Shown: one piece after another, positions 12,160 to 17,008 of the stretch
Layout of the letters: every line of letters begins with the position of its first letter
How positions within the stretch are numbered: the stretch's first letter is position 1
Notes under the pieces: generated by a model
Told to the model about the DNA's origin: nothing
What the model saw: the letters and a program-made list of their open reading frames with translations, nothing else
Databases searched by the model: none
Assembly: GCA_018653365.1 (NCBI GenBank)
Contig: JABIAG010000001.1
Location: 128,001 to 192,000, forward strand
From: Candidatus Woesearchaeota archaeon
Lineage (GTDB): Archaea > Nanobdellota > Nanobdellia > Woesearchaeales > JABIAG01
Reading direction: 5' to 3'
Length of the DNA stretch: 64,000 nucleotides
Position numbers and translations under genes: made by a program

Positions 12160-13236
12160 ATGTCAATGTTTAAAGATATGCTAAAAGATACAGAAAGCCT
12201 ATTCACTACAAATGTAGAAGCACTAGATTTTGATTACCTACCAAAATTAGTGCCTTTTAGAGAGGCAGAACAAAAACAAATAGCTAACTGTATTAAACCC
12301 TTATTTCAAAAAAGAAACGGAAGAAACATATTAGTACACGGAAAGCCAGGAATTGGTAAAACCGTTGCAATAAAACACATTCTAAAAGAGCTAGAAGAAG
12401 AAACAGATGAAATCTTTCCAATATACATAAACTGCTGGCAGACAACAACTTCATTTAAAATAATGATAGAAATCTGCAACCAATTAGGTTACAAGTTCAC
12501 TCAAAACAAAAAAACAGAAGAACTAACAAAAGTAGTAAAAGATATAATAAACCAAAATTCTGGAGCAGTAATAATCTTTGATGAAATAGACAAAGTAGAA
12601 GATACAGACTTCTTATACTTATTACTGGAGGAAGTATACAGAAAAACAATTATTCTAATTACAAATTATAAATCCTGGTTCACACAAGTAGATGAACGAA
12701 CAAGATCAAGACTCATACCTGACTTGTTAGAATTTAAAGAATACACTGAACAAGAAACAATTGAAATATTAAAAGCCCGAATGCAATATGCTTTTGTTCC
12801 AAACGTTTGGGACGATGACGCATTTAACCTCTTAGCAAAAAAAGCAGCAGAAATGAAAGATATAAGAACAGGATTATTCCTCATAAAAGAAGCAGGACAA
12901 ATAGCAGAAGACAAATCAAAGAAAAAAATAGAAAAAGAAGACGCACTACAAGCAATAACAAAACTAGAAAGTTTCTCAATAAAAAGCAGTAACGACTTAG
13001 TAGACATAGAAAAAGAAATACTTGAAATGATAAAGAAAAATAATGAAATGAAAATTGGAGACCTGTTTAAGATGTACGCAGCAAAAGGAAAAGACATAAG
13101 CTACAGAACATTTCAACGAAGAATAAAAAAATTAGAAGAGGGCAAGTTCATAAATATACAAAAGTTAGACGGTGGAGCAGAAGGCAAGACATCTATTATC
13201 AAGTATGGTGAAAGTAAAAAATTAACTGATTTCTAA
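12160..13236 (+). CDS. cdc6: Orc1/Cdc6 replication initiator
   Basis: LDFDYLP.LVPFRE, GKPGIGKT Walker A, YINC, IIFDEID Walker B, C-terminal wHTH. Confidence 0.92.
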   Translation: MSMFKDMLKDTESLFTTNVEALDFDYLPKLVPFREAEQKQIANCIKPLFQKRNGRNILVHGKPGIGKTVAIKHILKELEEETDEIFPIYINCWQTTTSFKIMIEICNQLGYKFTQNKKTEELTKVVKDIINQNSGAVIIFDEIDKVEDTDFLYLLLEEVYRKTIILITNYKSWFTQVDERTRSRLIPDLLEFKEYTEQETIEILKARMQYAFVPNVWDDDAFNLLAKKAAEMKDIRTGLFLIKEAGQIAEDKSKKKIEKEDALQAITKLESFSIKSSNDLVDIEKEILEMIKKNNEMKIGDLFKMYAAKGKDISYRTFQRRIKKLEEGKFINIQKLDGGAEGKTSIIKYGESKKLTDF

Positions 13237-13262: not shown

Positions 13263-13760
13263 CTATTTAACCGCCATACAAACATCTAGAATATGATGAT
13301 GTTCAGGATGTTCTTCAGGTCTGTTTAAGTATATCTCATAACTTGGTCTTGACATATCTATCTCTTTATTATTTTCTTTTATCCATTCAACAACTTTATT
13401 CCATGCAGGACCATATTCTTCTGGGCCGAACAATTCCACACGCATTACAACATATTTTCCGCCAGGAAGAGTTTTCTTTTTTATTTCATTTTCAACTTCA
13501 ACATTTTCTTTGAGAGTCATACATACATCTAATTTAAGTTTATCTGGCGGAGTTGTGTGTGGATCATCATGATAAACTGACATGAAAATAGTTTCATTAT
13601 TTATTAATTGTTTAGAACTCGCCCAACCACAAAGTTTACCAAATAACTCTTTAAAGACTTGAACATTTCCCATGTAGTTGCCAACAAAAGAAACATAAGC
13701 AACATTTCTTTCTCCCAATTCCTTAATTTCTGGTTTGTTTATGAGTTCCACATTTATCAC
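13263..13760 (-). CDS. GyrI-like small-molecule-binding protein
   Basis: YHDDP..TPPDKL..DVC, LPGGKY, YEIYLN.P. Confidence 0.9.
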   Translation of the reverse strand: MINVELINKPEIKELGERNVAYVSFVGNYMGNVQVFKELFGKLCGWASSKQLINNETIFMSVYHDDPHTTPPDKLKLDVCMTLKENVEVENEIKKKTLPGGKYVVMRVELFGPEEYGPAWNKVVEWIKENNKEIDMSRPSYEIYLNRPEEHPEHHHILDVCMAVK

Positions 13761-13891: not shown

Positions 13892-14092
13892 ATGAATATG
13901 TCTGAACTTGAATTTCATAGAAAAGTACTTGAACATTTTGAAGAACTGGCTGAATATAAAAGTGGATTAAATGCTCGAGCATTAACGAAGATTATAGAAG
14001 GACTTACGGAGTTAGTAAAAGTTGAGTCTTCTTTTAGCGGAGCAGAGGATACTCAGATTCACGTTGGTCTATCAGGATTTAAACGTAAATAA
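13892..14092 (+). CDS. small hypothetical protein
   Basis: 66 aa; TATA TTTATATA and SD GGTGA upstream. Confidence 0.6.
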   Translation: MNMSELEFHRKVLEHFEELAEYKSGLNARALTKIIEGLTELVKVESSFSGAEDTQIHVGLSGFKRK

Positions 14093-14165: not shown

Positions 14166-14248
14166 TTGTCCAATGCTCAAACCCGCTAAAACCTCCAAAT
14201 TCTAACTTTCTAAAAGATCCTTTAAAAACAATTCTAACCATTGGACAA
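14166..14248. promoter_or_regulatory. 10-bp perfect inverted repeat next to a TATA box
   Basis: TTGTCCAATG(14166)/CATTGGACAA(14239); GACAAG-A-CTTGTC palindrome at 14158; TATATAAA at 14263. Confidence 0.45.
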
Positions 14249-14359
14249 ACCCTGGAATGAGGTATATAAAGGAAACAATTCTACTAGTAATTGTTGATTC
14301 GAAACGGGCATTATGCCGAGTAAAACCCGTTTTAATTTTTAAAAAAAGAGGTGGTTAAT

Positions 14360-14524
14360 ATGATACAACAAAAATCGAAGATTTTTGAGCATCATTTCCA
14401 ACCAGGAGGAAAAATGATAGACCTAAGCCAAAAAACAATAAGTGAATTATTTTATGACCAAATTAAAAGAGTGACTCGCGAAAGTAGTTTTGACATACAA
14501 TACAGTGAGTGGTGGGCAAAATGA
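14360..14524 (+). CDS. microprotein 1 (54 aa, or 36 aa from ATG 14414), not in ORF track
   Basis: SD GAGGTGG before 14360 and GGAGG before 14414; MIDLSQKTISELFYDQIKRVTRESSFDIQYSEWWAK; ATGA overlap with the next ORF. Confidence 0.7.
   Translation: MIQQKSKIFEHHFQPGGKMIDLSQKTISELFYDQIKRVTRESSFDIQYSEWWAK
14364..14394 (+). repeat. palindromic REP-like element
   Basis: TACAA-CAAAAATC-GAA-GATTTTTG-AGCATCA. Confidence 0.8.
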
Positions 14525-14631
14525 AGTCTGTCAATAGATTAGCAATGGACCTAGTAGATGAAGCAAGATGGACTGGAGAGTTAAGTGGAGAAGAAGCAGA
14601 TTATATACTCGATTATATACAAACCGCGTGA
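14521..14631 (+). CDS. microprotein 2 (36 aa), not in ORF track
   Basis: MKSVNRLAMDLVDEARWTGELSGEEADYILDYIQTA; SD-like GGTGG; ATGA translational coupling. Confidence 0.7.
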   Translation: MKSVNRLAMDLVDEARWTGELSGEEADYILDYIQTA

Positions 14632-14640
14632 GGTGAAAAA

Positions 14641-14754
14641 ATGAATTTCAATAAAAAACAAAATTATGTAAGTTGGGAAGAATACATGAACAAGGTAGAT
14701 CAGTTTGAAGATTTTATTTTCAGACAAAGTAGTCGAGGAACGTTCTTGCCATAA
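14641..14754 (+). CDS. microprotein 3 (37 aa), not in ORF track
   Basis: MNFNKKQNYVSWEEYMNKVDQFEDFIFRQSSRGTFLP; SD GAGGTGA complementary to the 16S 3' end TCACCTC. Confidence 0.72.
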   Translation: MNFNKKQNYVSWEEYMNKVDQFEDFIFRQSSRGTFLP

Positions 14755-14769
14755 AAACCCTTTCAAAAT

Positions 14770-14850
14770 CAAAGAGTTTAGAGTGTCAAAATCTGCAGGG
14801 TCAGTTTTTAACACACCAAAATTACTAAACCTTTGTTTTTTTATTTTTTT
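14770..14850 (+). terminator. long imperfect hairpin + T-run ending the microprotein operon
   Basis: CAAAGAGTTTAG/CTAAACCTTTG outer stem, GTGTCAAAA/TTTTAACAC inner stem, then TTTTTTTATTTTTT. Confidence 0.55.
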
Positions 14851-14892: not shown

Positions 14893-14954
14893 ATACAACA
14901 AAATTTTGAAAAAGAAATTTTGAGCATCAAAAACATCCCTGTTGTTTTTAATGC
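14893..14954 (+). repeat. composite palindromic element (two hairpins)
   Basis: ATACAA-CAAAATTTT-GAAAAA-GAAATTTTG-AGCATCA, then GCATCAAAAACA..TGTTTTTAATGC. Confidence 0.7.
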
Positions 14955-14968
14955 ACCTCTAACCCCTT

Positions 14969-15006
14969 CCAACCCTCAGAAATGAGGGATTGGTTTTTAT
15001 TTTTTT
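14969..15006 (+). terminator. GAAA-tetraloop hairpin + T-run
   Basis: CCAACCCTCA-GAAA-TGAGGGATTGG-TTTTTATTTTTTT. Confidence 0.55.
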
Positions 15007-15019
15007 CATTAAATGAATG

Positions 15020-16300
15020 TTAATCCCAAATCTTCTTAGTTTTTAATTCAGAAATGTTATTCTCCAACTTTTCTAAATAACTTAAAAGTTTTTGTTTTAA
15101 ATGGGTGCCGAGTTGTTCATAAGCACTAAAGTTTTGATGTAATTTTTTGAATGGTTCCTCAACATTAGAAGTATTGTGACCTATGCAAACCATATATGCT
15201 GAAAGCATCCATTCAATGAAATCAGATTCAGCAGAACTTTTTGCTTCAGCTAAGTAAACTTCATTATTCTCTTCAGCTAGCCTATACTCTGAGCCGCGAT
15301 AATATTTATTTTCTTGTCCATTTCTAAACTTGCCTTTAACAACTAATATTGGTCCGCCTTTAATTGGTAAATATCTAAAGAACAGTAAGAGTTCAATCAA
15401 GATTAAAGTAATTTTGTGTGTTTCAAAGATCAATTTTATGTCTTCAAAAGATCGTTTTTCCATATCACTTATCATCCTTCTTGTATGACTAATAATTCTA
15501 ATGTGTTTTCTTAATTTTCGTAAATTATGTTCATCCCCCTTAACTGCATCACTTACATAATTATCATCTTGAATTTCCATAGCTAGAATGGTTAAAACTG
15601 AATCTGCGATCATATTTAATAAAAGTTTGGTGCTACTAAATTCATGTTTACATAAATAACTTAATTCACTATCCTCTTCTTGAAGCATCTTAAGTGTATC
15701 ATGAACACTCTTCCACTCAACTCCTCCCTGTTCTACATAACTCTCTAACTTTTTTACTCCTGTTTGAATATTATTGAAATGTTTTTTTAATATATGATCT
15801 TCATCATTTGAATATTTTAACATTAATCTCGCAACTTCTTCTTCATTTTCTCGTGCTCTAGAAATGCCATGATATAACTCATGTTTTATAACATATTCTG
15901 AAGATAATTTGTGAGTTTTTATTCCAACAATGTCAATATATAAATAAAAATAAGTTAGATCGTCACTTAAATTAATCTGTTGTTCTATTCTACCATTTGA
16001 AAAACAAAAAACACAAATAGCTTGTTTGGTTCTTATTATGCTTGAAGGATAACCTCCAAACTTTTTAATAAAATTTTCTAAGATGTTCAAAAAAGTGTTA
16101 ACTTTCTCTACTGTAGAATGATCTGAAGAAAAGTGTTTTCTTTCTCTTAAATCAGTTATGTTATGAAGTTTATTCCAATGTTCTAAGGCATCAATTGTGA
16201 TAAACCACTCGATGTTAAGAGGAATGTCTTGATTATCCAATAAGTCTTTCTTAAAATTAATGCTTTCAACTTTTTTACCATTATAGTTGCTGATATGCAT
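15020..16300 (-). CDS. hypothetical protein with HExxH zincin-like motif
   Basis: VIKHELYHG; 426 aa, mostly helical. Confidence 0.65.
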   Translation of the reverse strand: MHISNYNGKKVESINFKKDLLDNQDIPLNIEWFITIDALEHWNKLHNITDLRERKHFSSDHSTVEKVNTFLNILENFIKKFGGYPSSIIRTKQAICVFCFSNGRIEQQINLSDDLTYFYLYIDIVGIKTHKLSSEYVIKHELYHGISRARENEEEVARLMLKYSNDEDHILKKHFNNIQTGVKKLESYVEQGGVEWKSVHDTLKMLQEEDSELSYLCKHEFSSTKLLLNMIADSVLTILAMEIQDDNYVSDAVKGDEHNLRKLRKHIRIISHTRRMISDMEKRSFEDIKLIFETHKITLILIELLLFFRYLPIKGGPILVVKGKFRNGQENKYYRGSEYRLAEENNEVYLAEAKSSAESDFIEWMLSAYMVCIGHNTSNVEEPFKKLHQNFSAYEQLGTHLKQKLLSYLEKLENNISELKTKKIWD

Positions 16301-16447: not shown

Positions 16448-17008
16448 ATGCAAGTAATAGACAGAAATGAACTAAAAATATACAAACAAGACTTCTACAA
16501 AAGAATCAAATCTGGAAAGATATTTATCTACCCAACAGACACAATCTATGGACTGGGATGTGACGCAACAAACGCAGAAGCAGTAAAAAAGATAAGAGAA
16601 ATAAAAGAAAGAACCAAATCACCATTCTCAGTAATAGCACCATCAAAAAAATGGATAAAAGAAAACTGTGAAATAACCAAAAAAAGAGCACTATGGAAAC
16701 TACCTGGAAAATACACCATAATATTCAAACTAAAAAATAAAAATGCAGTAGCAAAAGAAGTAAACCCTGGAATGAATTCTTTAGGAGTAAGAATACCAAA
16801 ACACTGGGCAAGCAAACTAGCAAAAGAAACAAATTTACCAATTATAACAACCAGTGTAAACAAACAAGGAGAAGAATACCTAAAAGTAATAAATGATATT
16901 CCACTAGAAATTAAAGGACATATTGATTTTGCAATAGATGAAGGACCAATAGAAGGAAGCCCATCAACACTAATAAACACAACAACAAACGAAGTAATAA
17001 AACGATAA
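16448..17008 (+). CDS. tsaC: L-threonylcarbamoyladenylate synthase (Sua5/YrdC)
   Basis: YPTDTIYGLGC, K.R, GVRIP, TSVN, PST. Confidence 0.93.
   Translation: MQVIDRNELKIYKQDFYKRIKSGKIFIYPTDTIYGLGCDATNAEAVKKIREIKERTKSPFSVIAPSKKWIKENCEITKKRALWKLPGKYTIIFKLKNKNAVAKEVNPGMNSLGVRIPKHWASKLAKETNLPIITTSVNKQGEEYLKVINDIPLEIKGHIDFAIDEGPIEGSPSTLINTTTNEVIKR

Follow-up and report, generated by a model that had tools for sequence, protein, structure and literature searches.

Three tandem genes for microproteins of 36, 36 and 37 amino acids (A, B and C) lie between an Orc1/Cdc6 gene and tsaC in a reduced archaeal genome, and we put at about one half (0.5) the probability that their products form a small heteromeric module of DNA metabolism that is co-regulated with recombination and repair genes. 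The genes are found in the window (the whole stretch of 64,000 nucleotides that was analysed), whose host is a Woesearchaeota-type DPANN archaeon with a genome of 1.09 Mb in three contigs, called the host genome below. The features on which the argument rests are the following, in window coordinates.

12160-13236, plus strand: Orc1/Cdc6 paralog, 358 aa (Pfam AAA_22 and Cdc6_lid)
14167-14175, minus strand: inverted copy of the promoter box, reading CATTGGACA on that strand (genome motif scan)
14239-14247, plus strand: promoter box CATTGGACA, its start 24 nt upstream of the TATA box
14263-14270, plus strand: TATA box TATATAAA within GGTATATAAAGGA, a context conserved in relatives
14301-14340, plus strand: stem-loop then T-run in the 5' leader of A (in relatives GGCAGG, a C-rich loop, CCTGCC and a U-tract)
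14365-14393, plus strand: hairpin-type repeat ACAACAAAAATC-GAA-GATTTTTGAGCA inserted in the A leader, which creates a 54-aa frame specific to the host genome
14414-14524, plus strand: microprotein A, 36 aa; predicted helix at residues 6-23, then a conserved aromatic tail SFDxQFSxxW
14521-14631, plus strand: microprotein B, 36 aa; acidic, with C-terminal EEGFMxGYL in the order and EEADYILDYIQTA in the host genome
14641-14754, plus strand: microprotein C, 37 aa; aromatic-rich, with the motif W..Y...I.FLD.F.FQQ, in which W12 and Y15 are invariant
14833-14850, plus strand: T-rich tract after C, likely an archaeal terminator
14895-14929, plus strand: second hairpin-type repeat, a variant copy downstream of the operon
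16448-17008, plus strand: tsaC/yrdC, 186 aa (Pfam PF01300), the usual downstream neighbour of the trio

The three genes, their distribution and their neighbours

The earlier note had read three tandem plus-strand ORFs of 36 (or 54), 36 and 37 aa in this region, and all three were recovered at the positions listed above. The SD-like sites that it saw ahead of each ORF are likewise present, AGGAGG at 14404-14409 before A, GGTGGG at 14511-14516 before B and GAGGTGA at 14630-14636 before C, as is the ATGA at 14521-14524 in which the stop of A overlaps the start of B. Of the long ORFs in the host genome 15-18% have an SD-like motif ahead of them, against a background of 2.3%, in agreement with the view that SD use is rare among the other genes here; since it is a minority mode, three such sites in a row on 36-aa ORFs are unusual. 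SD-led, translationally coupled and provided with a promoter of their own, the three ORFs do make up an operon of microproteins, as had been proposed. An alternative 54-aa frame of A, starting at ATG 14360, is also open; the start Met of A in relatives is that of 14414, so the longer frame is specific to the host genome. A hairpin with a T-run had been claimed to follow the trio: the T-run stands, as the tract at 14833-14850, but the sole scored terminator-like hairpin lies at 14973-14988, about 220 nt past C. In relatives a hairpin and T-run are found 3' of the last microprotein gene.

The hairpin-type repeat has three copies in the genome (14365-14393, 14895-14929 and 56023-56050), two of which bracket the microprotein genes. 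Each consists of ACAACAAAA, an 8-bp palindrome stem and TTTTGAGCA, and the stem co-varies among the copies (ATC/GAT vs TTT/AAA). Stretches 80-100% identical to it occur in several other families of the order, and it is missing from the A leader of a genome of the same genus (G001).

The A, B and C peptides occur in the same order in two genomes of the same genus, in a different genus of the same family and in further families. The frames and SD sites were compared in close relatives, as had been advised, and both are conserved; a GAGGTGA-type SD site precedes nearly every ortholog. In pairwise comparisons the substitutions in A, B and C are in excess at third codon positions, with a pooled dN/dS of 0.13-0.23, a pattern of codon change that shows all three to be under purifying selection. 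In G001 the start codon of C is ATC/ATA, not ATG, and the remainder of C is conserved. The kept gene order across genera and families, together with the SD sites and the dN/dS, upholds the earlier argument that these ORFs exceed chance, and A, B and C are almost certainly real genes.

In a sample of 401 genomes of the order, a profile of A matches in 257, mostly in single copy. A phylum-wide sample gave matches in 187 of 401 genomes, nearly all from that order; two of the 187 are marginal matches in other orders of the class. The genes are vertically conserved and syntenic in more than 100 families of a single order. In an HMMER search run exhaustively against 1.8 billion representative proteins, A gave 359 clusters at 50% identity, and the 150 best of these are all 34-126 aa long, none being fused to a large domain. 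Profile searches returned 67 clusters for B and 49 for C, in which every given name is "hypothetical protein", Woesearchaeota or Nanoarchaeota and which carry no precomputed Pfam domain. With their own profiles B was found in 31 and C in 20 of 70 A loci; these counts are lower bounds, because in one family (f95) the small ORF that comes second, after A, is a different one. Given this detection the trio may not be obligatory. The second ORF of that family (loci L050-L057 and L064) is about 30-40 aa long, reads RIAYLLxKY...QxYxDDY, stands in place of recognisable B and C, and may be a diverged or replaced subunit.

The earlier note recognised no family for the peptides, and our searches agree with it. 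A, B and C have no match in Pfam, NCBIfam or PHROGs (best PHROG E = 0.057), their profiles find nothing below E = 0.01 among all PDB chains, and these searches detect no homology to any known repair factor. A feature search of the ESM Atlas with A returned unnamed clusters only (scores up to 0.89), and no description of the trio was found in the literature searched. Small, equal-sized, SD-led, aromatic-rich ORFs of no known family had suggested a viral-type early or anti-defence cassette, or else ribosomal peptide precursors. Both proposals fail on the distribution and the context of the genes, and we hold them to be extremely improbable. The genes are chromosomal, single-copy, vertical and syntenic across the order, the PHROG search found nothing, and no modifying enzyme, transporter or protease adjoins them, their neighbours being cdc6, tsaC and assorted housekeeping genes. 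The peptides are conserved over their full length with no variable core, and the N- and C-terminal motifs are their most conserved parts.

Synteny of cdc6, A(-B-C) and tsaC is common across the order, and the block is contiguous in one relative (G003). Three ORFs interrupt it in the host genome only, one for a GyrI-like small-molecule-binding protein (13263-13760, minus strand), one of 66 aa (13892-14092, plus strand) and one of 426 aa with no Pfam match (15020-16300, minus strand), the last lying between the trio and tsaC. The GC skew of the host genome has only a shallow turning point near the locus. The commonest gene upstream of A is cdc6 (15 of 69 loci), here one of three Orc1/Cdc6 paralogs in the genome. 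The most frequent neighbour of all is tsaC, which follows the microprotein genes, in the same orientation, in 43 of 70 loci.

This adjacency invites a reading in which the trio works with TsaC (a YrdC-type threonylcarbamoyl-AMP synthase), for example by replacing the Sua5 C-terminal domain or by passing the product to KEOPS, and in which the repair-type promoter is incidental. The enzyme is indeed YrdC-only, no Sua5_C domain (PF03481) having been found in the host genome, and many loci retain A alone beside tsaC. However, of the 43 A-tsaC spacers 37 hold a T-run and 36 a TATA-like box, which makes tsaC a transcription unit of its own; the 426-aa minus-strand gene intervenes in the host genome, tsaC is not adjacent in 27 of 70 loci, the promoter of the trio is of the radA type, and in another relative (G036) A and B sit with a paralog of p81, the protein encoded upstream of radA. 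We therefore judge a partnership with TsaC unlikely. The same spacer elements, with the strong amino acid conservation and a dN/dS of about 0.2, speak against the three ORFs being uORFs or leader peptides of tsaC.

The promoter box, its regulon and the leaders

The TATA box that the earlier note placed ahead of the ORFs lies at 14263-14270, and the box upstream of it recurs in relatives. The consensus CAYTGGACA, or a lineage variant, is present in one or two copies upstream of A in 62 of 70 loci, most relatives having two tandem copies. The start of the TATA-proximal copy lies 22 or 24 nt ahead of the TATA box, and these offsets are the same at the A and the p81-radA promoters. Eight sites in the host genome match the pattern of box plus TATA at fixed offset, vs 0-1 in shuffled genomes. 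The genes behind these sites encode p81 then RadA, an NTP-transferase then a DEAD-box (Lhr-type) helicase, and several LAGLIDADG_3 proteins. At the p81-radA promoter the box is present in 26 of 30 relatives, and most families have CACTGGACA at both the A and the radA-operon promoters. The variant of one family (f135), two copies of CACTTGCCA, stands at the A promoter (L029, L034, L035, L037 and L044) and also at the p81-radA promoter (L128-L132). Because the box co-varies between the two promoters, a single trans-acting factor probably serves both operons. With the fixed 22-24 nt offset, and with a box whose sequence keeps in step with that of the radA operon, the trio is likely to belong to the box regulon. 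In G036 the p81 paralog, with its characteristic leader, comes directly after A and B.

What is new here is the linking of the microprotein trio to the radA-type promoter box. As their promoter is of the same special type as that of radA, A, B and C are likely to be hitherto unnoticed members of a DNA-damage response in archaea. Membership is no proof of a role in repair, since the box regulon also holds selfish LAGLIDADG genes.

The p81 protein (81 aa; P0156, C1:101320-101562 of the host genome) has its gene ahead of radA in 32 of 36 loci. AF2 models it with four strands and a helix at the C terminus (pLDDT 93). It has no sequence match in Pfam, NCBIfam or the PDB, and the structure search gave no convincing match (Foldseek best E = 0.11, with weak Pur-alpha rows; VIA wide best Z = 4.9). 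In some genomes p81 is present as two paralogs. The p81-radA leaders (L098:1300-1500; L099-L132) carry a conserved motif, TTGAAAYAARAYGCGAAAGCAAGGAGG, immediately before the start codon, in which a GC-GAAA-GC tetraloop hairpin abuts the SD site; it is kept in many families and may serve to control translation. Three copies of a structured leader or RNA, about 110 nt long, are present in the host genome (C1:719261, minus strand; C2:126364, plus strand; C3:42361, plus strand; loci L092, L096 and L097), right after box-type promoters and ahead of LAGLIDADG_3 genes. It runs from GAGCCTCGCGC to GTTTCGCTGGTTGAGTCTC and is followed by a U-tract.

About 21-26 of 70 A loci, the host genome included, have a stem-loop in the leader, downstream of the TATA box and ahead of the SD site of A. 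All 8 consensus pairs of this hairpin have at least one compensatory change, in sequences that were chosen for forming the hairpin. Loci without it have a short leader of about 40 nt from TATA to ATG. Oligo-U terminates archaeal transcription, so the hairpin with its U-tract may be an attenuator, and we regard the stem-loop as a candidate for this function. No Rfam family was found for the A leader hairpin, the radA leader or the 110-nt RNAs.

The promoter also allows the trio to be seen as a regulatory or signalling part of the box regulon. The microproteins would then act as small cofactors or anti-factors for the regulator, which may be the Orc1/Cdc6 paralog encoded next to them, and their own box would provide feedback. 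The frequency of cdc6 as upstream neighbour and the three Orc1/Cdc6 paralogs of the host genome would fit such a role, as would the precedent of Sulfolobus, where Orc1-2 binds a promoter motif of damage-response genes (PMC6061795). The box has CCACTGGA in common with the Pyrococcus mini-ORB ATTTCCACTGGAG, which is bound by Cdc6/Orc1 (PMC1904270), but this likeness covers 8 nt only and lacks the conserved TTCC/GAA ends. Moreover, the cdc6 promoter itself is without a box, and cdc6 adjoins the trio in only about a fifth of loci. A role as cofactors of the regulator is, in our estimate, quite improbable.

Peptide properties and the evidence for one unit

The N-terminal segment of A, DLSxxTIxxLFxxQI, is near-invariant, and an AF2 model built from 70 sequences places a helix at residues 6-23, followed by the extended tail (pLDDT 81). 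The modelled shape, a helix plus an extended tail, is typical of a docking peptide. B has a median net charge of -11 over about 38 residues and a pI of 4.1. C is basic in most lineages, with a median charge of +3 and a pI of 9.5, and 20% of its residues are aromatic vs 9% genome-wide. The charges of B and C are thus complementary. A comparison by hhalign detected no relatedness among A, B and C, and an origin by tandem duplication is ruled out on this ground.

Natural fusions of neighbouring chains occur in the genomic order, three of A with B (P0069, P0082 and P0104) and two of B with C (P0236 and P0258); all five are singletons from short metagenomic contigs and may be assembly or frameshift errors, and a protein search for homologues of P0069 returned P0069 only. 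Five independent collinear fusions point to chains that sit together, and as read from these sequences they suggest that A-B-C is one functional unit. A prediction of the A+B+C complex from alignments of the three gave no answer (score 0.02) and weighs neither for nor against association. A MAFFT alignment of the A-B fusions with rows of separate A and B put B onto A, and it was left out of the folding.

The fusions also bear on another proposal, in which a single ancestral protein of about 115 residues broke up into the three cistrons of A, B and C, with a generic, non-repair housekeeping function and a box that reflects growth-related co-expression only. The collinearity of the A-B and B-C fusions in genomic order would be expected of such pieces, B and C are in one frame with one TGA and three codons between them, and the distribution of the trio is single-copy and core-like. 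Yet the 150 best of the 359 clusters include neither a full A-B-C fusion nor a homologue of any length from beyond the order, the separated form is by far the commonest, and in the genome only about 9 promoters, with recombination genes enriched among them, carry the box. A split housekeeping protein seems to us distinctly unlikely.

The junction of B and C, which share a frame, lies at 14629-14643 of the window, and the three codons beside the TGA encode GEK. The natural B-C fusions have the identical junction minus the stop, and read-through of the TGA would yield a B-C fusion.

Two known binding motifs were also compared with the peptides. The order consensus of B, GFMxGY, fits the FxxA (BRC-type/polymerisation) pattern (Phe, two residues, Ala or Gly), but B of the window reads DYILDY and B peptides of the host's family have D, N, E or G at the small-residue position; RadA of the host genome carries its own GFESG motif. 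Inspection of the A, B and C alignments found no register in which the conserved Q/F/W residues fit a PIP box (Q-x-x-[LIM]-x-x-[FY]-[FY]). Binding to RadA/Rad51 by FxxA and a PIP box are therefore both a poor fit to the window's own peptides.

Proposed mechanism and comparison with known systems

We propose that the trio is transcribed from the type of box promoter that drives p81-radA, the Lhr-like helicase operon and LAGLIDADG genes, and that a regulator acting on the box would switch these promoters together, probably after DNA damage. In genomes with the leader hairpin and U-tract a share of the transcripts may stop early, and those that read through would be translated from the three strong SD sites with coupling. 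A, B and C, co-translated, would then work as one small heteromeric module, to which A would supply an amphipathic helix and the aromatic tail, B the very acidic segment ending in GFMxGYL, and C a basic, aromatic helix. The assembled chains would dock onto a larger DNA-transaction protein and assist or modulate its work in recombination, repair or the initiation of replication. The docking module is disfavoured in part by the fact that the strongest neighbour, tsaC, is a non-repair gene. In a stronger form of this proposal, which we think rather doubtful, the heterotrimer would be an effector of a hitherto undescribed SOS-like DNA-damage response of DPANN archaea. It would tune recombination by binding to RadA, to p81 or to an enzyme of replication or repair, with acidic B acting as a DNA or tail mimic.

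DPANN make up a large share of archaeal diversity, and to our knowledge no DPANN regulatory circuit has been worked out so far. Annotation systematically misses microproteins, and the trio illustrates that core genes can hide in "empty" intergenic gaps of reduced genomes. It offers a testable entry to an archaeal SOS-like response and to the way in which very small proteins modulate DNA-transaction machines. Peptides of about 36 residues are short enough for chemical synthesis, which makes candidate partners (RadA, p81, Orc1/Cdc6, TsaC and polymerases) directly screenable.

Several known systems resemble the trio in part. One is the Haloferax oapABC/arvABC cluster, which lies beside orc1 and oriC1, encodes a small GTPase, a DUF2073 protein and a DUF2072 zinc ribbon, and functions in extracellular vesicle formation (PMC10927574). 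It is likewise a conserved three-gene cluster adjoining orc1/cdc6, and the likeness is one of layout only: its products are much larger, unrelated proteins, and we rejected them as relatives of the trio.

PBP1 and PBP2 are small accessory subunits (about 12 and 8 kDa) of Sulfolobus PolB1 that were overlooked for decades; they dock on PolB1, whose activity is tuned by the acidic tail of one of them (PMC5418573). They share very small size with the trio, for which docking on a large DNA enzyme is only proposed. No binding occurs between PBP1 and PBP2, which are crenarchaeal and do not share an operon, whereas the fusions of A with B and of B with C suggest that the chains here associate directly; no homology of PBP1 or PBP2 to the trio was detected.

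For the promoter, the nearest case is that of the Sulfolobales, where the Orc1/Cdc6 paralog Orc1-2 binds the promoter motif ANTTTC of damage-response genes (DDRE; PMC6061795). In both systems repair genes share a short motif by the TATA box, and an Orc1/Cdc6 paralog, the regulator there, is a neighbour of the trio here. The motifs differ, ANTTTC there vs tandem CAYTGGACA at a fixed offset here, and no microprotein operon has been described in the Sulfolobales system.

Bacteria, finally, have small SOS-induced modulators of RecA, DinI and RecX, of which DinI uses a strongly acidic segment. The trio resembles them as a set of small proteins that share a promoter element with the recombinase gene, and acidic B recalls the acidic segment of DinI. 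The bacterial modulators are single proteins, whereas the archaeal genes are three cistrons for 36-aa chains, and no similarity in sequence or profile connects the two. If the trio did prove to be an SOS-like effector, it would be an archaeal counterpart of DinI and RecX made of three 36-residue chains.
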